Of a stretch of 64,000 nt of DNA, positions 3,076 through 46,290 are shown piece by piece. The stretch spans positions 14,786,645 through 14,850,644 of the forward strand of contig OZ316893.1 in the NCBI GenBank assembly GCA_973895155.1. Direction: 5' to 3'. Position 1 is the stretch's first letter. Each line of letters opens with the position of its first letter. This stretch comes from Marsupella aquatica (taxonomy: Eukaryota > Plantae > Marchantiophyta). The notes beneath the pieces are model-generated. The model searched no databases. It was not told the origin of the DNA and saw only the letters and a list, made by a program, of their open reading frames with translations. Position numbers and translations under genes: made by a program.

Positions 3076-3079
3076 CACT

Positions 3080-4270: not shown

Positions 4271-4425
4271 TAGAAAACAACATTTGAAAATGATATACTT
4301 ACAAAACATAAGTTTATTGATAATTGAGAAGCACATATTTCTCCATTCTACCGAGAAGAGAAATCTTCATATCATCAAATCTAACTATATATCCGTGTAG
4401 CTATATATCCACAAACACAGAGCCC

Positions 4426-12179: not shown

Positions 12180-12392
12180 CTATGCACATTACAACCAAAA
12201 AACCTCCTCATGTATATTTGACCAAGTACAACAAATTAAAATAGACTTAACACCATTCATTCAAGACATTAACAATTAAAGTAAATGCATGGGCTAAAAC
12301 CTTATTACTCCAAAATGAGCCCAAAGGCCATATATATATAATAGTAAATGGGAAGTCCAAAACAGGTGCAAGAGGATAAAGGACATGATTTC

Positions 12393-22231: not shown

Positions 22232-24037
22232 TACGGTTTTGAGGCCGTACGGACGTCCGTACGGAAGGAGGTCCCGGCTTTGCAAGGGAAGGAGGAGGTA
22301 GTAGCACATACGAGGAAACCGTGATCCGTGTTTTGCAAAGCCGGGGGAAACGTGTTGTACGGACGAAATGAAGGTAGACGGTGCCCTGTAAAAACTTAAA
22401 CGATCATATCTTGGCCATTTGACCTCCATTTTGTGCACCGTTTATGGAGTCGTGATCAGGAAGAGGAGGGCTCCTCAGATATGTTTTCAGAAATGAAATC
22501 TGAGAAAATTTTAGTTTCGACAATTATAGGGGCCCCCTCCTTTTACAACGAACCGGTGGTGGCAAACAGGAGGATCGAGGCTCAAGCCAAGGCACCGTGA
22601 GTGAGGAGGAGGAGGACTGATGAGGAGACCAACTCACGGGGCTCAAGCCAAGGCACCATGAGTGAGGAGGAGGAGGACTGATGAGGAGACCAACTCACGG
22701 GGCTCAAGCCAAGGCACCGTGAGTGAGGAGGAGGAGGACTGATGAGGAGACCAACTCAAGGGGCTCAAGCCAAGGCACCGTGAGTGAGGAGGAGGAAGAC
22801 TGATGAGGAGACCAACTCACGGGGCTCAAGTCAGGGCACCGTGAGTGAGGAGGAGGAGGACTGATGAGGAGACCAACTCACGGGGCTCAAGCCAAGCACC
22901 GTGAGTGAGGAGGAGGAGGACTAGGGTAGCCATACGGACCTATCGTACGACTTCTGGATTTTAAATTTTTTTGGAAGGGTGCAATCACGGGCTTGTTGGA
23001 AAGAGCTTGCGGAGCTAATTCCAACAAGAGGCGGCGCTCCTCAAACGGAGCCAGGATGAGTAAGTTAGGGCCCGGCGAAGTTGGTAAGTAAATGATATTG
23101 AAACGGCCATAACTTGGTCGTTTGGTGTCCGTTTCGAGAGCGGTTTTGTGATTCATGATCAGGGGGAGTAGGGCTACCCAGGGGTGAGCTCAGAGGTGCA
23201 ATCGGAGTGGCACCTAGTTTCGGAAATTATGGGGTCCCTTGCATTTTTTGCGGTTCACGAAGTGATGTTGGGGCACCGTCGAAGGCACCATCGGTCCCAT
23301 TGTTAGATTAGGGTTTTAGGAGCATGTGTGTGCCGCATGCTTTAGAATTAGGGATTTTCTTGTGTGAAAGTTTATGCAGGGTTTTAGCGGCACCGCTAGG
23401 GTGGCCGACACCATGGTGATCCCGTGAGGGGTGCTTTGGTGTGTTTTTTCAGTATTTAGGGGGAGAGCCCCGGAGTAGTGAGGGGGGGAACTCAGTCTAG
23501 TGTTTGCTTAGGGAAGTTAGCTCATAGCCAGAAGAGGGAATCAAGCCAGAGTAGTGAGGTAGAGGTCTAGCACTTGCCCCAGTGAGGCAGTAGTTGGGCA
23601 GACGGCAGGAGGCCGGGTTCTCCTTGCAATGTGTTACAACATTTTGCCAAAAGATATGGATTTGGTTTGATTCCTCAAGTTTTGGTGTGGTGTTACCTTT
23701 TTTGGTTCATGATTGTGTTCTTTCCCCAAGAAGCGTCTAAGGAATCCTTGCACGGTTTGGTCAACCATGTGAGTAGGAGGGGTGGTGACAGCACTCCATC
23801 GACGACCAATAGGAGTGTGTGTGTGTGGCATAGTCCATGGGACTTGATCAAAAGCAAAGCGGCTAGTCAGTAGACTTGATCAAAAATTACATTTCCGGGA
23901 GCGGAAATAAACATACTCATCCTACATGCAATAGAATCCTAATAGCGTCCCTCCATGTTCCCGTCATACGATAACAAATGATTTTAGTATGAGTAAATAC
24001 GTATTTGTCATGTAAATCGTTTGATAAGCAGGTGACA
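22232..24037. mobile_element. Truncated inverted relative of the 6855-11210 LTR-like element
   Basis: About 22862-24037 is the reverse complement of about 6855-8010 and ends in ...gcaggtgaca. Confidence 0.85.
22579..22922. repeat. 61-bp tandem repeat, about 5.7 copies
   Basis: ctcaagcc-type unit starts at 22581, 22642, 22703, 22764, 22825 and 22886. Confidence 0.95.
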
Positions 24038-24049
24038 TGACACCCATGT

Positions 24050-24354
24050 GACTTCTTGTATTATTCTCCCTTAGATCTCGCTGATCAACCCATTGGCTTT
24101 CTTAGTTTAGAAAAACTAATATTAACTAGCCAGTTACCTAGTTTAGTGGTTCTGTGGATCATTCGTATACTTTTGTTGTGAATCAGATTGAGTCACATCA
24201 CGGCTTAGCCGTTATGGTGTTCATGCCGACCCTGAGCCCTTTTGTATTTAACATCTCCCTGATGGTTTGAGCCTAGAAATGGTGAGACTTCAAACCATTT
24301 CTAGGCTTCGGATTTTACTAATTATGATGAAACATTTGCTCTAGTTGTCCATTG
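24050..24354 (+). mobile_element. Remnant of old Copia element D: end of the 5' LTR plus an RT fragment
   Basis: 24050-24253 matches 44851-45075; YDETFALVVH just before the Sola-like insertion. Confidence 0.75.
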
Positions 24355-24404
24355 ATCAGCCTATGCATTAAAAGTGTATTTTCTTTTGTTCACAAATCAG
24401 TCTT

Positions 24405-24495
24405 GAAATGTACACTTTCATGTCCCCAAATGTACACTTTAAGAAACCCAAATATACACTTTTTGGTCCCTAAATAAACACTTTATAGGCCAAAT
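24405..24495. repeat. Left subterminal AAATGTACACTTT repeats of the Sola-like element
   Basis: 4 degenerate copies. Confidence 0.75.
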
Positions 24496-24759
24496 CATAT
24501 TATTATTATATTAATAAGTAATACATATTATATCATTTATTGATTCACAAAGAATAATAGGATAGAGATCATTATTTATTAATTCACAAAGAATAGTAGG
24601 ATAGAGATCATACTTATAAAAACATTTCAGCACAAAGAAACCCTTGAATATGTGTGAACAAAATGACATAACTCCAAATAGATTATAAAATAATATACAA
24701 TTATCTCCAAATTTACAATGTCTTTCTTCTATCTAAGGGGCTTAACATGAGTCAGATCT

Positions 24760-25839
24760 CTAAACAAAGTGCTCCTTACAATGTGAATTTGAGCACGTGC
24801 CCCTGTCTTCTTTACTATCTACCCTAGTGTCACGGTTGCAAGTCCCTTTATCTTTAGGGAGCTGAAACTTGGTGATGTTGTTCCTAATGGCTATAATCTC
24901 CCGCAAAAAGTGTCTGGGATTTTCTCTATGTGGACCTGAATAGTCCCTTCCTACAAATGCTTTAGCAAGTGACGTGACAAGTGCATCATCAAGTTCTGCC
25001 TCAAGACGTAAACTACATATACAATGCTTCACGTTCCAAGGAATCTCATTGCTATTGAGGTCCAACACACTATGCGTAAACTGTGACTTCCAAATTTTTG
25101 TTGCACATCTCTTACTAAGTTGATCATAAGTAATTTCATTTTTTACCTTGTCTCTCTTTATGTGCAATAGAGACCACAGTGGAGAGTTAAGAAGAAGATA
25201 ACATCTAATGTCACTTGCATGGGATAGTTTCTCAAGACAAGGCCAAAGAATTGTTAGAAGAAAATTATCTCCACCATTGGCATGCGTGTAGGGCACTAGA
25301 AATAGTCCGGTCATGCTTGGGTTGGCAAATGCCTTAAGGGGGGAGTCATCCACAAGGAGGGTGTTGGTTTCATCATATAGATTTCCAAATCCACTCCATA
25401 CCACCCGAAAATCCTTCAGTAGCACATTTGCCTTTCCGTTTGTAATGTCACGCCTTTGAATGCCTGTGTCAAAGGCTTCCACCTGTGTGAATACAAACTT
25501 AAGTTTCAACCGCTCCTCAGCAGTGAACATCAAGTTCAGCATTTTCACTGTTCGATGTACCCCAGCACATGTCCAAATTGCAACGTCAAATCGGTCAAAA
25601 ACCAACTTTAGAAACTCATGGAGCCCTGGCCTTTCTGTGTACATGCGACTAATTCCATTTTTTCTATCCCAATGCACTCCACTTGGGGTCACAACATTTC
25701 TGGATTTGCCCTTGCTTTGGAATTCAACTGAATCCCAAAGTATTTTGTTAAGATCCAAAATCAGCAATTTGCGCTTGATGGAACAAAGTCTTGGTTCTGC
25801 AAGTGCAACAAATACCAATCTTAGAGAAAAAAACCACAT
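24760..25839 (-). CDS. FCP1/SCP (NIF) family HAD-fold phosphatase-like protein, transposon cargo
   Basis: KRKLLILDLNKIL, ERPGLHEFL, FDVAIWT, LLKDF, NTLLVDDSP..A..NP; motif I is DLN rather than DxD; probable acceptor near 25799, so the true start is uncertain. Confidence 0.85.
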   Translation of the reverse strand: MWFFSLRLVFVALAEPRLCSIKRKLLILDLNKILWDSVEFQSKGKSRNVVTPSGVHWDRKNGISRMYTERPGLHEFLKLVFDRFDVAIWTCAGVHRTVKMLNLMFTAEERLKLKFVFTQVEAFDTGIQRRDITNGKANVLLKDFRVVWSGFGNLYDETNTLLVDDSPLKAFANPSMTGLFLVPYTHANGGDNFLLTILWPCLEKLSHASDIRCYLLLNSPLWSLLHIKRDKVKNEITYDQLSKRCATKIWKSQFTHSVLDLNSNEIPWNVKHCICSLRLEAELDDALVTSLAKAFVGRDYSGPHRENPRHFLREIIAIRNNITKFQLPKDKGTCNRDTRVDSKEDRGTCSNSHCKEHFV

Positions 25840-26012
25840 TTGAAGTTTGGATAGAGATCATCTCTGTCAACCCAACACAAGTGGCCAACCACAAAGAAAA
25901 TATATTTGCATACTGATCATATTCATTGAGAAACCGTAAAGAGGAGATGGATATTGATACTGATGCTCTAATTGTTAAACTTGAAGTATAATTATACAGA
26001 CTATATTATATC

Positions 26013-29000
26013 TGTTGCAAACCATATACTCCAACAATGTAATGAATCTTATTCATGTGTCCAATATATATACATGAGGTAGTTGAGTTAGATCTTGGTT
26101 AGATCTTAACTCGGGTTAAGATATCTAATCCTAGTTAGGGTATAACACTCCCCCTTGGGTGTTATAGTTTTTGATGAAATTATAACAACCAATCTAAGTT
26201 GCTATCAGTTAGATATCTTCTACCTATGTTATATTGTGAGATGATGGAGGTGCAACCTCATTAAAACCTTCCCTACTAACATCATGGAAGGAAAGAGTAT
26301 TGCCACCTTCCATCTCTTTTGTATGATCTATTTTGTATGTATGTAAGATCTAGAGTACAATACTGGTTTAATTGTGTTTTCTATGTTGTTAAGCTCCATA
26401 GAGGTTGTTGTCTCCATTGTCTTCATTGTAGTGTATGTGAGTTATTGATGTTCTTGAGAATGTCTTGATCTCCTTTGTGGTAGTATTGATGGTTTGCTTC
26501 TTCATAGTAAGTAGTCATTCATCTTCAATAGTGTTGTTGTAGAAAAATCCATTCTCCCCCTCAATGTTAGAATCCTGCATCAGTTTCTTAAGACTTCGCA
26601 TCCCTAAGAGGTGAGTTAGTGTTCTATGAGTAGATGGGGGTAGAGATTTTGTTAGGATGTCAGCCAGGTTCTTGTCTCCTGAAATCCATTGTATGTCAAT
26701 GTCTTTTCCTTGTTGTTCATGTGAGAAAAAGAACTTGGGTGCAATATGTTTTGTGCGTTCACCTTTTATAAATCCTGATTTGATTTGAGTGATGCATGAC
26801 ATATTGTCTTCAAATATAGTTGTAGGCATGGTTAAGCGTTGTTTACCTGTTTGAATAAGAATATGGTCTAGTACTTGCCGTAGCCATAAACATTCTCTAG
26901 TAGCCTCATAAAGGGCAATAATTTCTGAATGATTTGAAGAAGTTGTTGCAAGTGTTTGCTTAGTACTTCTCCAAGATATTGGTGTTGATCCCATTAAGAA
27001 TATATATCCTGTTTGAGATCTACCGTCATGTGGATCAGAAAGGTATCCCGCGTCAACATATCCTGTCAACTTATGGTTATCCTCATTAGGAAAATATAGG
27101 CCGAGGTCGGATGTACCATTAAGGTATCTGAAAATTCGTTTTACCCCGTTCCAATGTCTTATAGTGGGCTGAGAACTATGTCTCGCCAGTAGGTTGACAG
27201 AAAATGCTATGTCTGGTCTTGTTTGATTAGATAAAAACATAAGAGCACCGATAGCCGAAAGGTATGGCATATCTGAACCTAATATAGGTTCGAATTCTTC
27301 TCTTTTTCTAAACATATCCTTATCCTTATCAAGGGTACGGATGTCCATGGGGGATTTAACAGGCTTCAACATATTCATTCTGAATTGTTGTAATATTTTC
27401 TTTGTGTAAGTAGTTTGGTGTAAAAGAATGCCTTTTTCCAAATGTTCAAATTGTAGTCCAATGCAATAAGAAGTTCTGCCCATGTCTCTCATTTCAAATA
27501 CGCTTTTTAGCGTTTGCATTGACTCATTCATCATCTTTTTCGTACCAAGGAGGTTGAGGTCATCAACATATATAGCGATGATTATGAATTCAGGTCCTTC
27601 ATGCTTTATAAATAAGCAAGGAGCTATTTTGGAATTCTTATATCCCATGGATATCATTTGATTTTTAAATCTTTGGTACCATGTACGTCCACTCTGTTTG
27701 AGTCCATAAATGGAACTAAGGACTTGAACTGCATACCAAGTCTTTGCTCCGGTTGCCTTATGGTCCTTTCTAGGTTCTTTTAATGCAATTGCTTTAGAAG
27801 CATTGTGGAGTACCAATTTGTTCATATAGTCAAATGATTTTGCACTTTTATCATTGTGCATATGTGGATTATGTTTTGAATTTGCATGGAAGTTTACTCT
27901 CTCAATGAGTTCAGGCGGGGCTTCCATATAAATCACGTTGTCCAGTTTACCATAAAGGTAAGCAGTAACAACGTCCATTTGGTGCATTAACAGGTTGTTG
28001 TTTATGGCAAATGCTATCAAATAGCGGTATGTGGTGACGTCCATGACCGGTGAGTATGTCAGGTCATAGTCAGTTCCATAAACTTGTGTGTAGCCTTTAG
28101 CAACCAGCCTAGCTTTGGACCACTTAGAATTGGCGTCTATCACTACCAAGAAGTATCGAAATGGTCCACTTGGTGGGTCTATTGGTCCACATATGTCCGC
28201 ATGGAGTCTCTCAAGGAATGCGGGGATATGGTTTTCGGTTTTTGGGATGGAGGGGGCTGTAATCATCTTGCCCTGGGAGCAGGCGATGCATGGTTTTTGG
28301 AATGACCTTGGGTGACAGGTCTTTGGTATTCCTGTTGAGTTGTTGACTATCCTATGGAACATGCTGGTTCCTGGGTGTCCCAATCTCATGTGCCATGTCT
28401 CGGTGATATCTTTGGTTTCTACCCCTAGGTTGTAACTTTGGTTTTGGGTGATGTAGAACCCTGAAGGGTGGGGAGAGATGGTTTCTCTAATGATTATCCC
28501 TCCTTCTGAGTGTGATGTTAGTTGCAATACTTCTTGTGAGTTTTGGGTGTTTGTTTGGATATGGTAGTTGTTGGCTCTAATATCTTGGAAACTTAAAAGG
28601 TTCCTTCTTGCTTTGGGGGCATATATGGCAGATGGGCATCTGATTATAGTGCCTCCCAGAAGAGTTAAGGTAGCTCTTCCGTGGCCTTCTTCTATTTGGC
28701 TTTCTCCGGTTATGGTGATGATTTGCCTTTGTGAGGGGATAATTTCGTGGAAATATTTTCTATCTCGGAGGATAGTGTGTGATGTTGCGCTGTCTATGAT
28801 GCATACATCTATATCCTCTAGGTCCATTGGGGGGTCTACCATATGAATTTCTGGTATAATCTCAGGTGATTCAAGGTAAACTCCATGGGTTTCATATTTT
28901 GATCCATCCAAACTTTGCTTGTAGAGTTTCACAAGATGGGCTGGGGCATGGCATACCTTTTGGGTGTGACCTTTTGTACCGCACCTGAAGCATGTGATTG

Positions 29001-31244
29001 AGCTGTTTGAGTTGTTTCTTGGCTTCTCTTGGTAGTTGTTGCGGCCTCGTTCCCATGTGTTCCTTCCTTGGGAGTTGTTTCTTCCACGGCCCCTTCCTCG
29101 GTTGCTGAATCTGCTGGATCCTCCTCTGTAGGAGTAGTTTGATCGTCCTCGCATCATTCCTCTTCCCCTATATGAGCCTCTCCCCCTGAATTTACTTGTA
29201 TTTCTATCATAAGGTGTGGTCATGTTAGCTTCTTTTTGTTTCTCGTTTATAATTAAGTTCGTCTCGGTGGTAGCAGGTATGGGGAGTGTACCCGGGGGTC
29301 TATCCTTTGCATTTGTCATGAGTAGGATTGAGTTTTGTTCTGCCAAGAGCATGTGTGCTATTAATGCTGAGTATTTAGTGAATGCCATATTTCTATACTG
29401 GTTTGAGATTACTAAGTTTGTAGGGTGAAATGTTGCTAGTGTCTTTTCGATTTGTTGTTTATCATTCACTAGTTCACCGCACATTTGGAGTTCGTTCGAG
29501 ATGCGGAACATCTCGCTGTTGTATAAGTCTACCGTTTTGAAATCTTGCACTCTTAAGGTTACCCATGCTTGTAGCGCGTTTGGTAAGTTTATAGTTGTTA
29601 TGTGTTCAAATCTCTCTTTCAATGCATTCCATAGGAGCCTTGGGTTGTATATCGTCTTGTATTGTTGTTTTAATGGTTCTACTAATTGGTGTCTTAGTAG
29701 GACTAATGCTTGTGCCACCTGGTATTGATCCACCCCAATATCCGTATGTATGGTTTCTGGGATCCTCTTTGCCGTGAGGTTGACCTCCACGTCTATTGTC
29801 CAATCATTGTAGTTCTTCCCGTCAATTCTCAGTGCTGGGAATAACAGTTTCTCCATTGCCATCTTGGGGCTAATATGGGCTCGTGAGGTGTCGGGTGGGT
29901 ATAAGTTTCTATTGTGCACTTATTGTGGTTTGTAATCACTGGGAATGGAGTTTTGCACTTAGCTGTTTTTGTGTGGTATTTCTTCGATGGTAGACTTGTC
30001 CTTATGGTCTCGGGCAGATCGTCTTTGCTTGCTCACGGGGAGGAGCTCCTCCTTTGATTCGTCTTCTCGGTCTCCCGGTTCTCTTTCTGATTCTTCCTAG
30101 TTTCGTTCTTATGGGTCTCCATTCGAATCTGGTTCAATGGGGTCGATCGTTCTTACGCCGTCTTATCGTCTCTGGGTAATTCGTGAATCGTTTGCTGCTG
30201 TTCCGTGTTTCCTTCTTGTTTGTTTCGCTCGGGCCTGAGTGCAGATTGTGCTCCTGTCCTTATGAGTCCCCTTGCTTCCCTGCAGCTTTCTTTTGGTATC
30301 TACTTTTCTTCAGGTCTTGTCCCGGTATTGTTAGATTCTTTCTTCTTCGGTGGGGGGAATTGGGAATCGCTGCTTTTTGTTTTCTTCAATATAGCATTTC
30401 TGAATCTGGGGATTCGTGTGTTTTGATTTTGAGTAATTACGATCGGATCCTGGTCTGGGCCTCGATTTTCTTCTTTTCCCTTCCAACGAGTTCCAGCTCT
30501 TGTTTATGGCTGAGGCTATTCTGCGTTCCTCTCCAGGTCCTGATCTTTGCTTTACCTTCGGGTTCGCGCTCCCTCCTATTGATTTCTCAATTTCTCTTAT
30601 CTGTTTTTCAATTTCCCATGTTCGGGGTTACTCCCAGATCGGTCTCTCCTGCTCTGCTGTCAATGTCTGTGTGACATCAGGTTTCGATCTGCGCTGGCCT
30701 GTCCTCCTTTGCTTTCTTTACTTCGTTTCTTTGATTACGACATTCCTTCTTGTCTGCTTCAATTTTGTCTTTCTCTCTTGTTTCCTTTCGTTTCAATTCA
30801 TTTGCATTAGGCTGCGGTTGGCCCTTCGTGTTTCTGTTTTCCTTCTGTCTCTCAGGTCCTCTCCTATTATGTCAGTGTCCTTTTAATTCTCGCCTTTTGC
30901 TCGCTGGCTCACGAGATCTCTCAATGGTGGTCTATCGTTCTCAAGCCATAGACAAAACCGGGAGCCCATATTGTTCTACTTGAGGTTTCTATCGAGAAAT
31001 GGCCCTCAAATGTGGCCAAAAGTGCTCAACTTTTGGGAAAAACTCTTCGGATCTCCCCTTATGGTTTAGCACCTCTTCGTGAAAAAAATTTGCATTCGTG
31101 TTGATAACGTGTTGCAAACCATATACTCCAACAATGTAATGAATCTTATTCATGTGTCCAATATATATACATGAGGTAGTTGAGTTAGATCTTGGTTAGA
31201 TCTTAACTCGGGTTAAGATATCTAATCCTAGTTAGGGTATAACA
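26013..31244 (-). mobile_element. Ty1/Copia element, Bianca-like, recent insertion with an internal integrase deletion
   Basis: Identical 135-bp LTRs (26013-26147, 31110-31244); ATATC TSD; PPT at 26148; non-canonical PBS CGTTATCAACACG. Confidence 0.95.
26515..29919 (-). CDS. Copia gag-pol polyprotein (1134 aa) lacking the integrase core
   Basis: CFRCGTKGH zinc knuckle, IIDSATSH protease, WHMRLGHP, CIACSQGK, LHADICGP...IDANSKWS fused directly to RT KARLVAKGY; YVDD; KHIAPKFFFSHE. Confidence 0.9.
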   Translation of the reverse strand: MHNRNLYPPDTSRAHISPKMAMEKLLFPALRIDGKNYNDWTIDVEVNLTAKRIPETIHTDIGVDQYQVAQALVLLRHQLVEPLKQQYKTIYNPRLLWNALKERFEHITTINLPNALQAWVTLRVQDFKTVDLYNSEMFRISNELQMCGELVNDKQQIEKTLATFHPTNLVISNQYRNMAFTKYSALIAHMLLAEQNSILLMTNAKDRPPGTLPIPATTETNLIINEKQKEANMTTPYDRNTSKFRGRGSYRGRGMMRGRSNYSYRGGSSRFSNRGRGRGRNNSQGRNTWERGRNNYQEKPRNNSNSSITCFRCGTKGHTQKVCHAPAHLVKLYKQSLDGSKYETHGVYLESPEIIPEIHMVDPPMDLEDIDVCIIDSATSHTILRDRKYFHEIIPSQRQIITITGESQIEEGHGRATLTLLGGTIIRCPSAIYAPKARRNLLSFQDIRANNYHIQTNTQNSQEVLQLTSHSEGGIIIRETISPHPSGFYITQNQSYNLGVETKDITETWHMRLGHPGTSMFHRIVNNSTGIPKTCHPRSFQKPCIACSQGKMITAPSIPKTENHIPAFLERLHADICGPIDPPSGPFRYFLVVIDANSKWSKARLVAKGYTQVYGTDYDLTYSPVMDVTTYRYLIAFAINNNLLMHQMDVVTAYLYGKLDNVIYMEAPPELIERVNFHANSKHNPHMHNDKSAKSFDYMNKLVLHNASKAIALKEPRKDHKATGAKTWYAVQVLSSIYGLKQSGRTWYQRFKNQMISMGYKNSKIAPCLFIKHEGPEFIIIAIYVDDLNLLGTKKMMNESMQTLKSVFEMRDMGRTSYCIGLQFEHLEKGILLHQTTYTKKILQQFRMNMLKPVKSPMDIRTLDKDKDMFRKREEFEPILGSDMPYLSAIGALMFLSNQTRPDIAFSVNLLARHSSQPTIRHWNGVKRIFRYLNGTSDLGLYFPNEDNHKLTGYVDAGYLSDPHDGRSQTGYIFLMGSTPISWRSTKQTLATTSSNHSEIIALYEATRECLWLRQVLDHILIQTGKQRLTMPTTIFEDNMSCITQIKSGFIKGERTKHIAPKFFFSHEQQGKDIDIQWISGDKNLADILTKSLPPSTHRTLTHLLGMRSLKKLMQDSNIEGENGFFYNNTIEDE

Positions 31245-31290
31245 ATATCAAATTGATAAGGTACGTCACATCGCTCAATCTAGACCTTGG

Positions 31291-34200
31291 CTAACAATGC
31301 GATCCATATTCATCAATCAAGATATCATCACCGAGCTCTTGTTGGATCTCATAATTGACATCGGAGGTACTCTCCTCTATCCAATAAGGTGCAGACCAAA
31401 CCGGAGTTATCAATCCCAATTCTCCACTTCTATAAGTTGGATCTTTCTTGTGCTTTTTGTATGAGTCATTGTTCAAAATTGATTGAGCAGCATCCAATGC
31501 AACTTCAGTTCCTACATCGGGTCCACTTTTCCACACGTAACATCGACAATCATATTCAAGTGACTTATATCCAGTTGATCCTACTCTCTTCCCTTTCTTT
31601 TTTGAGAGTGGAAGGATAACAGGACTTCTTGATTGTGATCGAACAAACACCAATTTGTCATCAGAAGCGGAAAAGAGTGTATCGGGACAAATTGAAGCAC
31701 CTGCCTGGTTGTCAGCAGTCGTGGATGCACTTGCTTCATTCATAGGAATGTCAGCTATTTGGATGGGCTGCGGTCTCAATCCCAATGTGTCGAGTTCATT
31801 GGACTCACCATGCCTCTCCGCACCTTGATTGAGAAGGTTGTTTGAAGACAGTTTTTCAAACGTATCAACTTCCATCTCTTGTCCAGGCAATTGTGGATGG
31901 AGACCATCTCTATCCAAGTTATCATCATACTGGCCCTCGTTGGGTCCCATGGGGGCAACATCTATAATTGGTGAACTACAAGGTGCAGATCCAATAATCA
32001 TATCGTCTTCCACAAGGTCAATATTTTCACCCTCGCCAACTCGATCATCCAAATTCTTCACGTATGCCTCCTCCGATGGCCCATCGTCTTTGACTGATTG
32101 GTCAGCTCCATCTTCTTGATCACCATCTTCTTGATCACCATCTGATTCATCGTCAATAGCAACAGCGACAGAAGAGGGTTTCCAATGTCTAGAACTTCCA
32201 CCGACATAGCGATCATAACGATCTTTGATGGTGGGAACCTTCTCACAAAGGAACGAAGCATATGCTTCCACAAAATGTCTCTCATGTTGAGAGTCACAAT
32301 AAACAAAACATTCACGTTGAGAAAAAAAGGATGCCTTCATCACTTGACCGCTAGAGAAAAAGTCAAGAATCAAATCCCTCGGCTCGGACAGTGTTTGGAT
32401 GATCTTTTGGATCATCCGTGTGGGTTTGGCGTGAGGATTCACCCACCCACCCCGAGCGCCGACCGTCTCAAATTGAGGTGCCATGTGCAGAAGTATTGCC
32501 GCCTCTTCTGGGGTCATCATATTTCTTAGATCTTCATGTAATGACTCCTCGTCCGCGTCCTTTGCCTTTCCCTTTCCCTTGACCTTCTCAACCATGAAAT
32601 CAGTATCCTTTTCACCGTACACCCATTTTGGCTTCATCTGGTTGGGCTTGAACACTTCATCCCAGCTGACGTTCTCTTTGCAAGAAATTCCCGCAAAGAT
32701 AACTTCTTCTATTCCTCCCTTCCAACATGAGTCGTGAGGGTGAGGTTGATCATCTCGGTAATAACTCCCATACTCAATGTGAATAGTCAAAGTTTTTGAA
32801 TGTCCTAATTTACGAAGAGCGCTTAGGACATTCAGTACAAGGTAACCCGGATGGACAGTTATCATCACAACAATGGTGGGATTCTATGGTAGCTCTACTA
32901 TGTATTGGAAGAGTACCAAAATCTCTGCTTCGGTCCACTCCTTCTGTTGAAGTCGGCTAAAATCAACAATTGCAAGAGGGCATGTTGGAGATTGTTCTTC
33001 CAACGACTCCGGATTGACTGTCTTCATTAGGTTGTTACTAAAAAATGTGACCCACGGTTGGGTCCGAGAACTTATCCCCCCACCAAACTTCTGACAGTAA
33101 ATATCTGACGCATCACCAATGTCATTGGCAATATCTCACTCTCCTTTGTATGATTAGATTTCAATAAATTTGTCAACCATACTTCACCAGCCGCTCTTCG
33201 GCACCTGTTCAACTCCGACTCGGCACCTAACAATGGGAGGACCTCAATTACTTTAACCCAATCACTATCTGCTAGGAAGTTTTTCGGATCCTTCTTGAAG
33301 TAGTAATCTCCAATAAGAGACTTTAGTTTGATCAATATCTTCACCTCCTTTGCAAAGTCCTCCATTGCTGGAACATCTGACTTATTTGTCGGATCCTTCT
33401 TCAATAAAACCTGACCTGACTTCACCTTGTTCAAAATTCTGGTCAAATCTCTACTTGATATTTCACCATCAAAACAATGAAACATTGCAACCGTTATACC
33501 CTTTTTGGACCTTTTGTTTCCCTGTGTACTAGCTCCATCAGGAAGATGTCCATCAATCCACATCTGGCACACTAACCGCCAGAGCTCGAAAAGATCATTC
33601 TCGGCAAAGAGCAACCGATATACATTTTTCAAGTTTTTTCTCCCCATGGTCATCCTTGCCAATGCCAAATAATCCTACAGTCAAAATTAGGGGAAAATAA
33701 GTTATCTACAATCAATGAGATTTGACAACAAACTATCACTTGAATTGCTTGTTGGACAGAGACCATCTCCATCCAAGTCATAACTAAAAGTAAAAGGAAG
33801 AGAAATCTTTGGAATGGACGATGACACTCTTGGACAGAGATCATCTCCATCCAAGTTATAACCAAAAGTAAAAGGAAGAGAAATCTCTGGAATGGACGAT
33901 GACACTCTTGGACAGAGATCATCTCCATCCAAGTCATAACCAAAGTAGAAGGAAGAGAAATCTCTAGAATGGACGATCACACTCTTGGACAAAGACCATC
34001 TCCATCCAAGTCATAACCAAAAGTAGAAGGAAGAGAAATCTCTAGAATGGACGATGACACTCTTGGATAGAGACCATCTCCATCCAAGTCATAACCAGAA
34101 ATATATTGAACTAAAATCAATGTAATGGACGGTCACACTCTTGGACAGAGACCATCTCTGTCCAAACAAGAAAAGTGTTTCTCACCTGAAATTTTTGATT

Positions 34201-35802
34201 CTCTTGGGCGTTTGACTTGTTGTCCCCGTGCTTTGGCTTTCTTGGTCCTCCGCATTCAAGGAATTGTTTCCTTGCATGAACAATTGTATCTTTGAAGCAC
34301 GATTGAAACACCATCGTCGAATTGATGGCATTTGATCTCATTGAGTGCTCAACCAATATAGCCGATGGTGTAAGGTCTGACAATAATCTAGACTTCCTAT
34401 ATTTTAACTTTTTTGCCAACATTGTGAGCTTGGCATCAGTTTTGGCCCATTCGAGAACCCACTTGGCCGCCCTAGCCGAATGTTGCCCACTGATGGCAAA
34501 GAAACCAATCTCGCCTTTCTTCACTCCTGCAAGAAAGTCTTTGCGGTCGTTCTCCGTGCTGTCAAAATGGAGCAACTTTCTAAGCTTCAGACTATAAGGA
34601 AGGAGGTCCGCGATGTGAGGTTCATGTCCGGGGTTTTTGACCATGGATTTGGCTATGTGCTTCACATGGGTACTACTGAGCATCCTGTAACATAATCTTG
34701 CAGGTGCAGGCACAATTTTCTCCACTAGAATAGAAAACAGTTCATTTATCCCAAAAGTATAGTACTGCTCTATTCTCTGGAGAACATCATTTCCTTCTAA
34801 GACTTTCTTCTCCTCAGGGGCATCAAGTTTGTCTCCCTCATCTTCTGGGAGCATCTGTACGTCCGCAGGGGTTGACCGCAAAAGAGACTTGTCAATTTTC
34901 TGTTTCTTCGCTACTGGCTTCTTCTCGGGTTCCTTCGGCAATGTCTCAATTTTCTCGCGACCCTTCCTCTCTCTTAGTCTTCGCTTCCCTACCACTTGTT
35001 TGGTGCTTGTCCCAGTCGTTGTTCCTGCAGTCCCTGTTGTTGTCTCCTGAGATATTTTTCTAGGTTTGGGAACTTCGTTGGGAACTTCTTTGTTAACAAC
35101 TACTGGAAGCTCGTTCACCACTACTGGTGCAACATTTGTAGGCTTGGGTAATGATTCCACCCACTTTTTTGCATTATCCATCGCAAACTCCTCTACAAAT
35201 GCAATTTGCTTGTCAAGGCAAACACCTGATTCCGCAGATAGGAATCCTGCCTTGTCAAGCAAATTATTTAAAATCCATGTCACCGGAAATGTATAATTCC
35301 CTTGGTGTTTATGGATATTCAGCTTCACATATTGAAACCCATACATGATGTCAAGTGGAAGAATCCCCTTCACTCCAGCAATCACCTTTTGAGTTGAATA
35401 CGACTTAGGGAAAAAGCCCATTGCCATCACGCCAAGTTCTCCAACAGCAGACCACTCAACATTGAACTCTGAAGAATACGCCTTTGATGGTAGATGTAGC
35501 TTAACCCATCGTATCCTTTCATGGAGCTCAAGAATGATGGAAACAAACCCTCTTCCTTCAATTCCAATGAAGACTACAAGTCCGAGTACAAGAGTCTCTT
35601 GATCTTTTGTTCTGACCTTTATGCACAAAATGGGATCCCGTCTCTCTGACGTGATAAGGAAATCAAAATCAACTCTAGAGAACTCAAGGCCCCAACAAAA
35701 ATCTGGTTTGCTCTGCTCCAACAAGACTCCCTCGGAGCAGTCTGATTCTGAAATTGCTGGTTTCAATCCATTTAGATCGCTCCCTGCAATAGTCCCATCC
35801 AT
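31291..35802 (-). pseudogene. Two-exon ~1330-aa cargo gene: ParB/Srx-like domain plus beta-class N4/N6 DNA-methyltransferase-like domain; one frameshift (near 33100) and one TAG (near 32885)
   Basis: Exon 1 35802-34186 (RMLSSTHVKHIAKSM...FFAISGQHSARA); phase-0 GT-AG intron 34185-33675; exon 2 has LAIVDFS and NPHAKPTRMIQKIIQTLSEPRDLILDFFSSGQ, resembling HPxxKPxxL...S.PGDLVLDPFxGSG. Confidence 0.65.
33752..34165. repeat. 78-bp tandem repeat (5-6 copies) in the intron, each carrying the element's palindrome
   Basis: ttgga(c/t)a... at 33752, 33830, 33908, 33985, 34063 and 34141. Confidence 0.9.
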
Positions 35803-35860
35803 GCATATTAGTTTGGAAAATCATAATTTGTAATCGACAAAGATGAGGTTCTCTCACAGT

Positions 35861-36400
35861 TTGGACAGAGATGATCCCTATCCAATTGGACAGGGATGAT
35901 CTCTATCCTCTACTTGGATAGGGATGATCTCTGTCCAATTTGTAACAAAGATAATCTTTGTTCGATCAAAGGATACTGACAATCTTTATTAGGAATTGGA
36001 CAGGGATGATCTCTATCCTCTACTTGGATAGGGATGATCTCTATCCTCTACTTGGATAGAGATGATCTCTGTCCAATTCCTAATAAAGATCATCTTTGTT
36101 CGATCAGAGGATACTGACGATCTTTATTAGGAATTGGACAGGGATCATCTCTATCCTCTACTTGGATAGGGATCATCTCTATCCAATTAAAAATAAAGAT
36201 CCTCAACATCCTCTGATAGGACAGTTTTGATCCTCTGGTTGGACATCCTCTATCGTCATTTTGGAAATAGATGATCCCTATCCAATTGGACAGGGATGAT
36301 CTCTGTCCTCAATTTGGACAGAGATCATCTCTATCCAATTCCTAATAAAGATCACTATCTTCTACTTGGACTCTACTTGGACAGGGATGATCTCTGTCCA
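35861..36400. repeat. Cluster of GGAYAGRGAT-N-ATCYCTRTCC palindromes upstream of the ParB/MTase-like gene
   Basis: For example ttggacagagatgatccctatccaa; more than 10 copies. Confidence 0.9.
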
Positions 36401-37442
36401 CTGCACAAATATTCAACTTATTACCGAGATACTTTCTTGGATTGAGCAATTGGAAGGCTCTGGAATCCTCGAGGGCCGTGTCTACCACATCCTCAATGGA
36501 GGAGAGGTCTATCTCCTCTGTTGGTTCAACGACCAAAGACACATGAATAGGTCTAGATGGATCCATCTTGTGACACGTGGAGGATCATAGAGCGTTAGAT
36601 CTAGGGCAATTAACATGGCGGCTAGGGCAGAAACTCTAGTGTGAAGGCGGAGGTGGAGTGGAGCCTAGGGAGACTGGAAGCGAATGAGGCGGAAGAGCGG
36701 AGGCGCAGGAGCGGAGGTGCAGGAGCGGAGGTGCAGGAGCGGAGGAGCGAAGAAGAGGAGGAGGGAAGAAGAATGAGGCCCAAGTGGGACCTCTTGCCTC
36801 CTTTACCCCCCCCACACCAAGGCGAGGCAAGGACGACTCAACACGTGGGAGGCCGAGCTGCAAACCCTAAACGCAAGGCTGCGTAAATTGTGCCGCCCGA
36901 CTTGGTTGTGTGGCGTGGGTGACCTAATCCACTCGACCCTAAACTCTGCCACTGCTTAAGGCTGATCACGCATCGCCTTATCCGTAAGAGTGATCTTGAA
37001 TAAATGGTATAAGAGACTTGGGCTGCTCCGGTTGGTCCTCATTTGGTATTTTCATTTCTAGATTTTCATTCAGTCTCTCAACCAGGTCCGTTCATTACGG
37101 AGCCCCATTGAGCCACTCTTGTTTTCTAGACAGAACATTTAGTTTTAATTTCTTCCACACCCCTGAAGCATTTAGTTTACCAGCTTATTGAGAACTACCC
37201 CTTCAACAAAGTATTTTATTACTTGGTTTGACAACATAAACTAAGTGAGTTTTGTGTTCAAGAATCATTTCCATTACAGGTAACTTTCAACTTAATTATA
37301 GAATATTCCATTGGTATCAAATTTAGGAATTGTATATCTAAGTTACTTGAGGTTGGGGTATCCAGCCCAACTCATGATTGGGATCATCTCAATCGAACCT
37401 TTCTTTGGTCAAACATTAAATTAGTGTGTAGAGGTTAATTGT

Positions 37443-38430
37443 CCGTACAAGGGTCATCCCTGTTAGCTGTTTTGATAGGGATCATCCCTATGTGCTGTTT
37501 GGATAAGAATGATGTTTGTCCACCGTTTGGATAGAGATGATCCCTGTCCACCGTTTGGATGGGGATGATCCCTGTCCGGCTTTTGGATAAGAATGATGTC
37601 TGTCCACCGTTTGGATAGAGATGATCCCTGTCCACCGTTTGGATAGGGATGATCTTTGTGCACCGTTTGGATGGGGATGATCCCTGTCCACCGTTTGGAT
37701 AGGGATGATCTCTGTCCACCATTTGGATGGGGATGATCCCTGTCCGGCTTTTGGATAGAGATGATCCCTGTCCACCATTTGGATAGGGATGATCCCTGTC
37801 CACCATTTGGATAGCGATGATCCCTGTCCACCATTTGGATAGAGATGATCCCTGTCCACCGTTTGGATGGGGATGATCTTTGTCCATCGTTTGGATGGGG
37901 ATGATCCCTGACCGGCTTTTGGATAGAGATGATCCCTGTCCACCATTTGGATGGGGATGATCCCTGTCCGCCATTTGGATAGAGATGATCCCTGTCCACC
38001 GTTTGGATGGGGATGATCCCTGTCCGGCTTTTGGATAGAGATGATCCCTATCCGCCATTTGGATGGGGATGATCCCTGTCCGCCATTTGGATAGGGATGA
38101 TCCCTGTCCGCCGTTTGAGGTATTTGCTTTATGGGACCCCAATATGAAAGGTTTTACTTTCAGATAGGACCGTTGAGTGATCCTAAGTGATCCGGACCTT
38201 GAATCATCCATGTCTATTGTTTGGACAGTGATAGACCCTATCCGCCATTTGGACAAGGATCAGCTGTGTCCGCCATTTGGACAATGACAGACCCTATCCA
38301 CCGTTCTGACAGGGATCATCCCTGTCCGCCATTTATAGGGATCATCTATGTCCATTGTTTGGACAGTGATAGAACCTATCTGCCGTCTGGACAGGGATCA
38401 TCCCTATCCAACGTCTAAATAGGGATCAGG
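37443..38430. repeat. 28-bp tandem array (about 30-35 units) with a palindromic core, in the probable first intron of the transposase gene
   Basis: Unit ccgtttggatagagatgatccctgtcca; putative donor at 37280, acceptor at 38583-38584. Confidence 0.95.
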
Positions 38431-38584
38431 GATCTTAGGGCTAGATAAGGATTGTTTAGGGACCTATTATTTTGCTTGATGGGGATGATCCCTATTTGCG
38501 CACTGTCCTTGGATAGGGTTCACACCTATCTGCTTCCTAGTTGGGACCATTGTTAACTAATACCTTACATTTCAAATTGTGCAG

Positions 38585-41500
38585 GTGAACACGTTGTAGG
38601 AATGACCGGAATATTTTTGAGAGGAGACAATGTGATATTGACAATTGGTGGTTACGATGTTGCAAGCAGGACAGTTCAAAAAATCAACCCGCAAGATAGT
38701 GTTCAAAAGATATTGTTGAGAGAGAATCGAATGGGCGTTCTCATTGAAAAAGTTTTTGACCGAACCACAAAACTACCATTTCCAATGCCTCGGGCAGAAA
38801 ACCTTTTTGATGCCATTGATTCTTGCGTTATTTGGGATTTGTCTTGCGCATGTCTATCAACGATAACAAATTCTCAAAAATGCATTAGTGTAGGTAGTTG
38901 TTCAAATCGACCGGAGAGTAATTTGGAAAAAAATCCAATTGTAGAGGAGGACTCATCGACCACTCTGAGGCAAGGGGATGAGGTTGAAATGTTCATATTT
39001 GGGTGTTGTGTAGCCCTTGGAGTTGTTTTCAATACAAATCCAATGGAAAGATGTCACAACATTTTACTTGGTGAATCACGGATCAGTGTGAGGGTCACTG
39101 ATGTCATTCATGGGAGTAGGGTTTTACCTTACAAACACAGCGGGGCTGAAACAATTGACGAGCCAAAAGACTCATGGGTTCTCTGGGATGTGGCAGGTGT
39201 CCGAAGTAGAAAGAGTTTCTCAAAGAAGGATGCGGGCGATGATATCAACATAGAGCGGAGTTTTGTTGCAGAGTCTCCCTCAGCTGAAATTTCTAAAAAT
39301 AATTGTGACTATTTCCAACGGTCAAATTGGATGTCAGAGTTGGTCGAACTATACATCGGTTCAGATCGAACCAATAGGGTTGCCACGGGGACCATCACTG
39401 TGCCTCAAGAAATGGCGGCGGTTGACGATGAAATCCTTGGTGAGGACCATGTAGGGATTGTTGTGAAAGATGTGGTGGAATCACAATACTTTCCCAATTT
39501 CCATAGGGGAGTAATTACTTTGGTTTGGTGGCGGATTGATTCAACAAAACTACTTGCAAACGGGAAATTTTTGTCGGACATTTTGGTTGAAGGTTCAGAG
39601 AGGATGGAGACGGTGGATAGGGATGATCTCTATCCAAATGTAAATGATAGGGGAATGCCGCGCACAAGGCCATACAATTTCAACAAGAGGACTCATGTAG
39701 ATCCGATTGAAAAGAAGAGAAGGTTGTTGGAAACCAAGGCAGTTTCAAAAACAACGGAAGCTTCGATTGATAAAATTAAAAGAGAGAATTGTTGCAAGCA
39801 GAAATGTTGTCTGACTATGCCAAGAGAAGACAGAAGATATCCGGATAGAATTTCACGGGATGTCTAGCGAGTCAAAATCATCACACATTTTCAACCTCTT
39901 CCAATACAGAGAAGATGATGTTCGTGATAAGGGGCACCATGTTCTCAAAGGTATGGTCGTATGTAGACATGCATTTGCAATCATCCATGGCTTTAGCCAC
40001 ACGAAATATTATGATTACAAAAGGAGATATGTGGAGGGTTGCAAAATTGGGTTCCATGGAAACACGGGCTCCATGAAAACAAGGTCAAATACCTTGCATG
40101 CACGAGCTCTGTTGGAGGATTTTTTGACTCGAAATGCAGAGCCCATGCCTCATATACCTTATGCTGGGGCTCATGGGACAGACTCCATTGAGTATCGTCT
40201 TCCAGCATGTTACAAGAAGTTGGAGATTTTGGAAGATGTGAGAACAAAGATGAAGGAAGAGGGGCTTCCTCCAGTTACAGAGAATACTCTGTACAAGATT
40301 TGGAGATAATCATTCGCAAACTTCAGTTTCCATAAAGATGGTGCATTTGCCAAGTGTACTCTTTATTGTGAATACAAAGATAGTTTGATGCGAGAAAGAA
40401 GGAAAACAGAGCGTGCTGAAATTGAAGAAAAATGAGCGCAACATCTTCAATTCGTGAGCAGATGTCACGTAGATATGTTTACTATATTCATCAAGTGATG
40501 GCTAAGCAACATCCAGGGGAATATCTTTGCATCATTCACGACAAGATGGATCAATCAAAGACTTGGATTCCAAAAATGGTCAGTACTCCTAAATCACTTT
40601 CGGGTCATGGGATGCCACTACCTATTGCTCTCACAGGGATGTTGACCCACGGAAGGGATCCAGGAGTCTATGCACACTTTAGTGTCACTGGCCTTTGGCC
40701 AGAAGATGCTGATTTCACGGTGACATCCTTGGCTAAGTGTCTTCGAGACCTTGAAGAGTACAATGGAGACAAGACAAGTGACATGTTGGATGGCCTTTAT
40801 TTGGAACCTCATAGACCTTTCTTTCAAGCCCTTCTTGACTTTGATGCATTTTTTAAGGGATATTTGGAACCAAAGAGTATTCCAATGAATAGGTATATTG
40901 GTTCTGAAGATGCAGCCGAGAGTCAGACGGAGACGGTCTCCACCCAACATGGTGAGGATCAAGGAGGGGACATGCATGGGGAACAAGGCAGTCCATCTTT
41001 CAAGCCCTTGCCAAGGCACCTAACACTGCAAATGGATAACTCAGCAAAGGATAACAAAAACCAGACTGTCATGGCATTTTGTAGTGAGCTTGTGAGTAGA
41101 GGAGTATTTGAAACTATTCAAATGTCTTTTCTAATGGTTGGTCATACACACGAAGATGTTGATGCACTCTTTTCGAAGGTATCATATCAAGTTCAGCACA
41201 AGGAAGTTGCAACTCTCCTTGCTCTTATGGCAGAGGTTTGGGAATGTGAGAGCATTCATCTAGTTCCCAGATTGATACAAGAAGTTGCATCTTACAAAGA
41301 ATATCTTCAAACTTTCAAAGTTAAAGATATTCATAGATCTGACAACAAATTCTCTTCTTTTACCTAGTGGAGAGCCCTTAGCTAAATTCATTGGAGAGAT
41401 ACACAAAAAATCTGAAGAGATTATCCCATTTCTTAACAAGTACCTTGATTTTTTGAGAAGGAGTTGCACTGATGAGACATCTATAGCATATAAGGAAAGA

Positions 41501-42229
41501 TTTCCTCTTGTGAAATATTGGGAGAGAATTGTGGAGTTGTTGACAAATGGGCTTGCACTAGAAGGGGAGGGAAGTACTCAATTTCCCTTGAAAAACGGAT
41601 TTTGGCCTAAGACTAACCACGGCACTGGTTACAAGGTCAACCAACCGAAACAAAGTGGTCTTCCAAGTGAAGATGAGGAGAATGCGGAGATGACGGCTCG
41701 TCAAAATGAGGTCTTGGAAGAGATGGAAGATCAAGCAGCACCATTTGTTGGATCTCGAGCTGAGAGAGAACAAGGACGGTGGATTCCCCTACAGGATATT
41801 CGTGAAGGGAACTTTGTATTTCTTTGACCTGAGGATGACTGGGAGAATAAAAATGGTGGAGGTCATTTTTGGTTGGTGAGAGCTTTGGGTTCGGTGGACC
41901 CTCAGCATGAAGTCCCAACTACATCTCCAACAAACCCTCCTATGCCTCAACAATATGCTCCAATGTTTCCAGTCGAATGGTGGAGGCCTAAACACTCTAA
42001 ACTTGATGTGACTGAGAGTGCACGGTATCTAAACTACTTCATGTCCACTAAGACATGGGAACGAGATCCAGGGTTTGGTGAGAACGCTCAACATTGGCAA
42101 TATGCAAATTCTGCAATGTACGGTTTTAAATCTGGCATGAAAGAAGGAAACATGGCGGGCAGAGGTTTGAAGATTCCTCGAAATGTTCTACAAACTGTCC
42201 AAAGTTATCTCCAAAGGATGGACAAGTAG
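38585..42229 (+). pseudogene. Sola-like DDD transposase with three N-terminal Tnp1/TnpA(Transposase_23)-like repeats; several frameshifts and stops
   Basis: CCKQKC, VCRHAF..IHG, IIHDKMDQ, LTLQMDNSAKDNKN, FLMVGHTHEDVDALFS; ORFs 38602-39867, 39860-40309, 40432-41367, 41285-41827 and 41873-42229. Confidence 0.8.
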
Positions 42230-42514
42230 ACTTAGTTGTTACTTGCGAAGCTATAATAATTAAATTAATTTAGATAGTTACTTACCTAGTTTTTATGTAA
42301 ATAGTCAACACTCATTCAAACATAGTAACTTACGTACTAGTTATTTACTATTCTAATAGTTTTAATGTGAGACCATGTCATTGAGTGTTAGTTATACTAT
42401 CTCCTCATTTTCTAAATTTTTGATCATTATGAATATGAATGTTTGCTTTTTTGCATAATTAAAAATATTTTTCTATTCATTCCTTTCTTTTAAATGATTA
42501 TAATAAGATTTGGT

Positions 42515-42830
42515 AGGAAAATGTACACTTTTTAGGCCAAATGTACACTTTGTTGCACTCAAAGTTACACTTTCTAGACAAACTGCACTTAAATGTACAC
42601 TTTTTAAGCCAAATGTATGTTTCTTTCACTCAAATGTACATTTTTAGAGCCAAATGTACCTATTTTGATGTTCAAATATACACTTTTTATTGCCCAAATG
42701 TACACTCTTTAGGCCAATTGTACACTTTTCTATCCCCAAATGTACACTTTTCATTGGCCAAATGTACACTTTTTCTCGCCCAAAAGTACACTTTTCATTG
42801 CCCAAATGTACATAAATCAAATAATAATAC
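42515..42830. repeat. Right subterminal CCAAATGTACACTTT repeats (~20-bp period)
   Basis: About 14 degenerate copies before the right TIR. Confidence 0.85.
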
Positions 42831-42855
42831 ACTTTTAATGAATAGGCTGACATTG

Positions 42856-45997: not shown

Positions 45998-46290
45998 ATC
46001 AATCTATTCATTAAAAGTGAATTATTATTCAATTTATGAACATTTGGGTAACAAAAAGTGTACATTTGGCTTTCAAAAAGTGTACAATTGGACAAGAAAT
46101 AAACATGTTGGCCATCAGATGTACCACCATGTTCATCCTTGTAAATGAACTAGGACTAGACTACTTTTAGGGGTAAAGATCAATTTTGTGCCCTCAAGTT
46201 TACAATTGACCATTTAGGTGTAAAGTATTGTACTACAATGTACCTTTTGGGGTTTTAAAATGTACATTTGGAGACCAAAAAATGAATATT
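45998..46290 (-). mobile_element. Decayed inverted fragment of the Sola-like right end (TIR plus subterminal repeats)
   Basis: atcaatctattcattaaaagtgaattattattcaatttatgaacatttggg resembles the reverse complement of 42800-42851. Confidence 0.7.

Follow-up and report, generated by a model that had tools for sequence, protein, structure and literature searches.

Giant DNA transposons that carry a ParB-like protein together with a DNA methylase are known from algae. In the brown alga Ectocarpus, the 21.5-kb Sola1 family Sola1-1_Ec32 bears, on the strand opposite its transposase, a gene for an 1104-amino-acid protein that unites ParB with an N4C/N6A methyltransferase (MTase) and has been proposed to bind and modify its own element (PMC12477816). 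In the red alga Bostrychia, Plavaka elements with the accessory genes PAG2/PAG3 have ParB-like genes beside tandem inverted-repeat arrays, with a PF01555 methylase in the cassette (bioRxiv 2025.02.11.637652), and ParB-type helix-turn-helix fusions to chlorophyte Dam have been reported (Iyer 2016, PMC4738411). Binding and protection of an element by its own protein has been shown for few systems, all from flowering plants: the motifs of VANC21 are dense and tandem and lie in introns and upstream regions (PMC5735166), and Spm/TnpA is an anti-silencing system with an element-encoded accessory protein (bioRxiv 2026.08.24.746577). The excerpts of these papers that we compare here establish that a ParB-MTase accessory gene opposite a Sola transposase, and ParB beside inverted-repeat arrays, are already published for algae. 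Here we describe a 64-kb stretch of contig OZ316893.1 (the window), in which a likely Sola-type DNA transposon at positions 24355-42851 carries a cargo gene with predicted ParB/sulfiredoxin (Srx) and amino-MTase folds, an FCP1-like phosphatase-fold exon and arrays of a 21-bp palindrome. We propose, at a probability of about 0.45, that the accessory protein binds these arrays as a non-catalytic scaffold that would keep the element transcribed against host silencing.

An earlier reading of the letters of this DNA (the sequence-only reading) had assumed that a transposase is usually all that Sola elements encode, an assumption which the Ectocarpus gene makes outdated. The present element resembles Sola1-1_Ec32 in being a giant Sola with ParB-like and amino-MTase domains in one gene opposite the transposase; compared by description, it differs in its FCP1-like domain, its palindrome array and its loss of MTase motif IV, none of which is mentioned in the excerpted Ectocarpus account. 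With Bostrychia Plavaka it shares a ParB-like domain in a giant DNA transposon, inverted-repeat arrays, a methylase and the hypothesis of self-binding, whereas in the excerpted Bostrychia account the transposase is of the EnSpm/Plavaka type and the ParB and methylase domains sit in separate genes, fused to a 2-oxoglutarate oxygenase and to SET, respectively. VANDAL/VANC and Spm/TnpA, as excerpted, likewise combine an element-encoded accessory protein with dense short non-coding motifs spread by tandem repeats, but VANC is a DUF1985/DUF287 protein of demonstrated function with 9-bp motifs in one orientation, as against a 21-bp palindrome and predicted ParB and MTase folds here; no Pfam match to DUF1985 or DUF287 was obtained in the window frames or the relatives scanned. 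What this element adds is a land-plant branch, the loss of the motifs, a phosphatase-like domain and a candidate site of defined sequence. Our literature search returned no account of a land-plant version, of an accompanying FCP1-like domain or of a missing motif IV, though such cases may appear in the Ectocarpus supplements or in Bostrychia Supplemental Table 6. The algal ParB-methylase hypothesis, proposed without test for brown, red and green algae, becomes testable in a tractable group with a candidate site and sequenced liverwort relatives.

The evidence that carries our proposal is the distribution of the palindrome, whose consensus, GGAYRGRGAT-S-ATCYCYRTCC, places a 10-bp arm on each side of a single G or C. 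All 50 matches to a looser pattern (up to three mismatches) and all 48 to a stricter one lie inside the element, with no match in the Copia retrotransposon nested in it or in the remaining 45 kb of the window, so that the spread over the element seen by the sequence-only reading stands; chance would supply a mean of 0.02 matches (maximum 1 in 50 Markov simulations of the element). Exact half-sites are similarly confined (76 of 77 within the element), and two half-sites lie near the element's left end. Although coding exons make up 8796 of 13,265 bp, 46 of the 48 palindromes are non-coding, and the two in coding frames, at 31895 in the cargo and 39615 in the transposase, both fall in variable linkers. 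The sites are found mostly in the cargo introns and upstream of the transposase, near the starts of the two divergent genes, and occupy at least six separate places with array periods of 78, 25/28 and 28 bp plus single copies, where tandem copies do not count as independent events. This restriction to the element, the avoidance of coding sequence and the several places with different periods support self-binding, as do the shared layout of the VANC21 motifs and the independent proposals of self-binding in the algal studies.

The palindrome might instead be unrelated to the cargo protein and serve as a transposase or host-factor site, form an RNA hairpin or be a locally amplified repeat. Two of the three arrays fold more stably on the sense strand (-162.5 vs -119.5 and -372.7 vs -274.9 kcal/mol), the dependence of tandem copies on one another fits local amplification, and two related loci lack the site (discussed below). 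However, the third array folds the opposite way (-279.2 vs -287.3 kcal/mol), arm variation in the cargo introns is mixed on the sense strand (16 wobble-type vs 10 mismatch-type), and, as far as the excerpted Bostrychia account goes, an unrelated group of algal transposons also has ParB genes next to inverted-repeat arrays. We consider it very unlikely that palindrome and protein have nothing to do with each other.

Structure searches speak for both the ParB and the MTase folds put forward from sequence, the latter by way of a Riccia relative. No window frame gave a Pfam ParB match, and a profile search of PDB sequences returned nothing meaningful. The model of the window's ParB domain (predicted local distance difference test, pLDDT, 94.5) retrieved Noc, ParB and PadC at Foldseek ranks 1-9 (best E 3.4e-3), and VIA gives nothing but ParB/Srx-fold chains in its top eight rows (best Z 7.2, root mean square deviation (rmsd) 2.9, 94 residues aligned); these scores are moderate and fall in one clan throughout, from which we predict that the cargo carries a ParB/Srx fold. 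A viral entry named ParB/Sulfiredoxin also aligns over 688 columns of a Riccia model (E 1.3e-4). Bacterial ParB/Noc proteins and phage ParB-methylase proteins are among the nearest known systems. Like bacterial ParB/Noc with parS, the locus pairs a ParB/Srx fold with palindromic repeated sites; unlike bacterial ParB, the protein has no ParA partner, is encoded by a spliced eukaryotic gene and has the signature arginine replaced. The G, Q and H of the signature are kept in 51, 50 and 54 of 54 sequences, and the next residue is Ser in 50, Thr in three and Leu in one, so the nucleoside triphosphate-binding arginine is absent from all 54. In the excerpted literature this arginine (GCHR, DGQQR/DGQHR) is nucleotide-binding, and the His-Arg of sulfiredoxin contacts phosphates. 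The cargo domain may still bind nucleotide, since another pocket Arg and an Asn are conserved. A confidently modelled helical domain follows the ParB domain at about residues 190-360 of the Riccia model.

ParB-fold proteins bridge and spread on DNA, a property that would suit a transposition helper. Such a protein would sit on the arrays and draw the 13-kb element together, by bridging or compaction, for the transposase to pair the distant ends, and would have no role in silencing. Sites are indeed present along the whole element, including the two in-frame copies and the two left-end half-sites, and the element is large for Sola, judged by an excerpted account of the superfamily (PMC10741241). 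The big arrays nevertheless lie near the 5' parts of the divergent genes rather than at the ends, where separate 22-bp repeats are found, and the MTase-like and phosphatase-like domains would be left unexplained. We regard such a helper role as unlikely.

The MTase-like region of the window matches Pfam N6_N4_Mtase below cut-off (minus strand, E 1.6e-4). A beta-class amino-MTase fold is supported in the Riccia relative P0142, whose model (mean pLDDT 65.2) matches M.RsrI (E 2.1e-6) and aligns with MboIIa at Z 13.1 (rmsd 4.2, 185 residues); the top 11 rows are all amino-MTases, ten of them give Z 11-13, and motif IV precedes motif I, as in the beta class. Pieces of the window's MTase and helical regions are homologous to P0142 (31% over 67 amino acids, E 5e-9; 22% over 138 amino acids). 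Marchantia MpDN4MT1 and rotifer N4CMT (Z 11.7) likewise combine a beta-class amino-MTase fold with a eukaryotic setting, but, as described in excerpt, they are active host enzymes that keep SPPY, whereas the cargo is transposon-borne and without it. At the motif IV position, 23 of 24 Riccia sequences read D-[LV]-[TA]-H-P, the window D-F-S and the related locus L001 D-F-G (register by inspection), and (D/N/S)PP(Y/F/W) was not found in the proteins searched for it. The Pro-Pro-aromatic residues of this motif hold the target base in N4CMT and CcrM, according to the excerpted account (PMC10406627). Motif I (FxGxG) is recognisable but shortened, as DFFSGG in 37 of 43 motif matches among relatives and DFFSSG in the window.

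These losses bear on whether the protein could be an active writer with a non-standard active site, depositing N4-methylcytosine or N6-methyladenine within or beside the palindrome as a mark that would shield the element, a mechanism proposed for Ectocarpus in the excerpted text (PMC12477816). The fold survives and so does the S-adenosylmethionine side, with HPxxK ahead of motif I and DFFSG in most Riccia copies, the motif-IV Asp persists in the window, L001 and Riccia, and the palindrome centre contains GATC, with the matching T in 43 of 48 copies. Set against this, the Pro-Pro-aromatic residues are absent, the residues after the Asp vary by subfamily (DFS, DFG, DLTHP), which is unlike an active site, and N6_N4_Mtase matches 32 of 50 scanned Riccia models, in every case below cut-off. 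We consider methyl-mark writing very unlikely and a non-catalytic self-binding scaffold likelier than a methylase.

The phosphatase-like exon gives a minus-strand Pfam NIF match above cut-off (E 1.2e-15), together with HAD-IIID (E 4.8e-15) and UBLCP1 (E 1.9e-8), and shares 35% identity with the NIF portion of Riccia P0137. FCP1/SCP/UBLCP1 phosphatases carry a DxDx(T/V) motif. The DxDxT form was found in neither the window, which reads D-L-N-K-I, nor the relatives, of which 22 of 23 read D-x-E-G. Because the first Asp is kept, and in the window also a later Lys and DD, residual phosphatase activity is possible though uncertain. An enzymatic form of the chromatin control suggested by the sequence-only reading is therefore doubtful, since motif IV and DxDxT are missing wherever checked. 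With motifs lost across the family and folds conserved, binding rather than the writing of methyl marks may be the conserved function.

In the non-catalytic scaffold that we favour, a dimer of the ParB domain and the following helical domain would recognise the two 10-bp half-sites, as ParB does parS, and the dense arrays would provide specificity. The methylase-like domain might serve as a DNA- or base-binding module, and the carboxy-terminal domain (CTD)-phosphatase-like domain might give the complex a contact with RNA polymerase II or with another phosphoprotein. Protection from silencing is the likeliest outcome by analogy with VANC and TnpA. A more elaborate version, which we find rather unlikely, would have a ParB clamp load on the palindrome arrays and spread, with the dead methylase masking DNA from host methyltransferases and the CTD-phosphatase-like domain engaging RNA polymerase II; early land plants would then possess a transposon-borne anti-silencing machine assembled from disarmed enzymes of bacterial and host origin.

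Several observations weigh against the scaffold proposal. Its anti-silencing outcome is argued by analogy, and the element is as poor in CG as the rest of the window (observed/expected 0.40-0.63 vs 0.51-0.60) and so gives no sign of long-term protection. The ParB Z of 7.2 lies in the middling range of the tool, with no Foldseek row at E 0.001; the model behind the MTase fold is that of a Riccia relative, tied to the window by short matches; and no helix-turn-helix match was obtained for the helical domain, the whole-model fold lists being filled by the other two domains. Loci L001 and L002 have the ParB exon and no match to the palindrome within their contigs of less than 1.7 kb, and intron B of L001 is short and without an array. 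Finally, the comparison with Riccia, Calypogeia and Diphasiastrum extends to the cargo genes themselves, which may or may not sit in Sola elements.

The same anatomy would also serve a self-limiting regulator, in which the protein on the arrays represses or times both divergent genes and so caps transposition rather than countering silencing. KorB, described as a transcriptional repressor, appears in both the Foldseek and the VIA lists, and in rotifers an acquired N4C methylase is reportedly tied to transposon control. The apparent abundance of the family points the other way, as does the excerpted evidence that the tested plant self-binding accessory proteins activate their elements, and we judge self-limitation quite unlikely.

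The cargo is not a one-off capture, for it is covered, like the ends and the transposase, by many variant contigs from public runs, as many as 26 and 33 of them at listed sites. Summed depth in run X2 is 10,343-156,779 in cargo bins and 93,069 at the right end, against 990-12,577 in the nested Copia and 122 in the flank, values that differ from copy number and that we read simply as indicating many copies. None of the contigs reaches from one gene into another, and the contig comparison covers the element outside 35851-38499, where the big arrays lie. X1 and X2 share an identical right flank, which indicates that organisms A and B are one organism or very close ones and may include the sample of the window itself; in X6 and X7 (organisms C and D) the cargo is covered at low depth, perhaps by admixture, and these two are not counted as further hosts. 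An HMMER search of 1.8 billion representatives with the ParB exon found 99 relatives. Nothing came back from word-based protein searches that used the window's MTase part or, among longer proteins only, its ParB part. Of 30 representatives looked up, 23 name no organism and none an alga, and the other seven name Riccia sorocarpa (4), Calypogeia fissa (2) and the lycophyte Diphasiastrum complanatum (1), whose protein scores E 3.7e-40 against a profile built without it. The closest named relative is a Calypogeia protein (51%), which makes a liverwort or related plant the likely host. Relatives were seen in none of 36 candidate stretches in viral contigs and in two of 244 in metagenome contigs, where the contig was each time too short to reveal what lies beside the gene. 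The ESM Atlas returned clusters of DUF3723, a Starship gene, at 0.80, a level that shuffled proteins often reach, and with no Pfam support they are no more than a lead.

A search with the Riccia MTase region yielded 52 dispersed Riccia models on eight contigs, automatic gene models of probably decayed copies. All three domains occur together in two of these models, MTase with NIF in 23 and ParB with MTase in ten; NIF was matched in 19 of the 50 scanned. The cargo has relatives in other plants: in Riccia, where gene models join ParB, MTase and FCP1-like domains, and in Calypogeia and Diphasiastrum. It does not appear to evolve neutrally: relative to L001 and L002, synonymous sites are saturated and yet 41-47% of ParB residues are still shared, a sign of long-standing purifying selection. 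The differences listed among the variant contigs (cargo exons, n=25, 9 synonymous and 16 non-synonymous; transposase, n=39, 16 and 23) come from 40 listed rows out of 947 and 491, respectively, reflect mostly private decay of the analysed copy and are no test of selection on the family.

The divergent arrangement of a Sola-like DDD transposase on the plus strand and cargo on the minus strand held, with DUF7869 on the former (E 4.4e-40, above cut-off) and NIF and N6_N4_Mtase on the latter. We take DUF7869 to be linked to Sola. Candidate catalytic aspartates are D39/42, D204 and D244/246 of the frame at 40426, a triad by motif rather than by structure. The transposase N-terminus (38620-39561, plus strand) comprises three internal repeats of about 75 amino acids each, two pairs of which score 104 and 56 against shuffle maxima of 41 and 44, while the third scores 36 against 52; a TNP1/EnSpm-like match to this region (E 0.03) was not confirmed on single repeats. 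Sola elements are described, in the excerpted account, by a 4-bp target-site duplication (TSD), terminal inverted repeats (TIRs) and a DDD transposase (PMC10741241). Because this element has a DDD-type transposase, TIRs and a 4-bp TSD (ATTG, at one site only), it is likely a Sola-type DNA transposon, an assignment based on these three features.

The 26-bp TIRs, which differ at two positions, and the flanking ATTG duplications confirm the boundaries proposed from sequence and, with the cargo exons and the NIF exon between them, the placement of the cargo within the element (Table 1). The left flank aligns with reverse transcriptase (RT) residues 360-376 and the right with residues 383-406 of a Copia pol frame elsewhere in the window (flanks aligned separately, with weak scores of 23 and 39). 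As the flanks match consecutive RT residues, the transposon sits in a decayed Copia. The split RT that the sequence-only reading had considered restored is thus adjacent in its residues but not an open frame, given the stops and a frameshift near the insertion site. That reading also overlooked the Copia element nested inside the transposon, which has a single 1134-amino-acid frame with the integrase core deleted and the frame continuing directly into RT, and is a recent insertion of a deletion derivative. Other copies are free of it, as contigs of the public runs show by a joint 25996>31245 in X2 and a loose end at 26012 in X1; the transposon proper therefore measures 13,265 bp. The analysed copy is broken: stops and frameshifts interrupt the cargo as well as the transposase. 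At 45998-46300 a related element is represented by a single terminus, which has a TIR at four mismatches, 22-bp subterminal repeats and 83% likeness over 97 bp, and no partner end in the window.

The large ParB-like and MTase-like gene of the sequence-only reading reads as one minus-strand gene with its domains on separate exons, three in all, joined by two GT-AG introns of agreeing phases. Intron B is backed by relatives, since Calypogeia protein P0010 spans the joint and many relatives stop there. Exon 3 of the analysed copy is damaged by a frameshift near 33103, absent from other copies, and a stop at 32884-32886. Ahead of ParB, a conserved domain of about 200 amino acids (35164-35783, minus strand) is common to many relatives and has no family match. 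The C-terminal end of the cargo (31294-31563, minus strand) resembles an integrase C-terminus (Pfam Integrase_p58_C, E 0.004, below cut-off), a stretch not seen in the scanned Riccia models and deeply covered in other copies.

Table 1. Features of the transposon and its insertion site, in window coordinates.
Feature	Position	Strand	Remarks
Left TSD	24351-24354		ATTG; from the sequence
Left TIR	24355-24380	+	26 bp; 2 mismatches to right TIR
Left subterminal repeats	24406-24485	+	22-bp repeats, distinct from palindrome; likely transposase sites
NIF/FCP1/UBLCP1-like exon	24760-25796	-	HAD phosphatase fold; separate gene or last cargo exon
Single palindrome	25849-25869		just upstream of NIF exon
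Nested Copia LTR retrotransposon	26013-31244	-	5.2 kb; long terminal repeats (LTRs) identical (135/135 bp); 5-bp duplication; not part of the transposon family
Cargo exon 3	31291-33674	-	helical domain, beta-class amino-MTase fold, acidic linker (palindrome at 31895), C-terminal GPY/F-like stretch; predicted
Intron B	33675-34185	-	GT-AG, phase 0; 78-bp x5.3 array with 6 palindromes
Cargo exon 2	34186-35783	-	N-terminal domain, lysine-rich linker, predicted ParB/Srx-fold domain (34186-34833), signature ISGQHS
Intron A, predicted	35784-36424	-	GT-AG, phase 1; 12 palindromes, 25/28-bp spacing in higher-order repeats
Cargo exon 1, predicted	36425-36566	-	ATG at 36566; based on agreeing splice phases
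Main palindrome array	37469-38497		27 matches in a 28-bp x23 array with further decayed copies; lies 5' of the transposase coding exon
Sola-like DDD transposase	38585-42229	+	five broken frames; N-terminal internal repeats and DUF7869 core
Right subterminal repeats	42519-42812	+	22-bp repeats x10
Right TIR	42826-42851	-	
Right TSD	42852-42855		ATTG; from the sequence

Elsewhere in the window, a SET-domain frame at 12393-13064 (minus strand; above the Pfam cut-off, with E 8.5e-6) is separated by some 6 kb from CACTA-type transposase frames (Transposase_21, DUF4218, DUF4216) on the same strand near 4426-6546. Together they may represent a second transposon with a chromatin-type accessory gene; matching CACTA ends were not found between 2500 and 17000. 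Two unrelated tandem arrays occupy 22579-22922 (61 bp x5.7) and 59028-59288 (85 bp x3.1), and exons of a host P-type ATPase-like gene extend over 48376-58929 on the plus strand (Cation_ATPase_N, E 1.6e-5).

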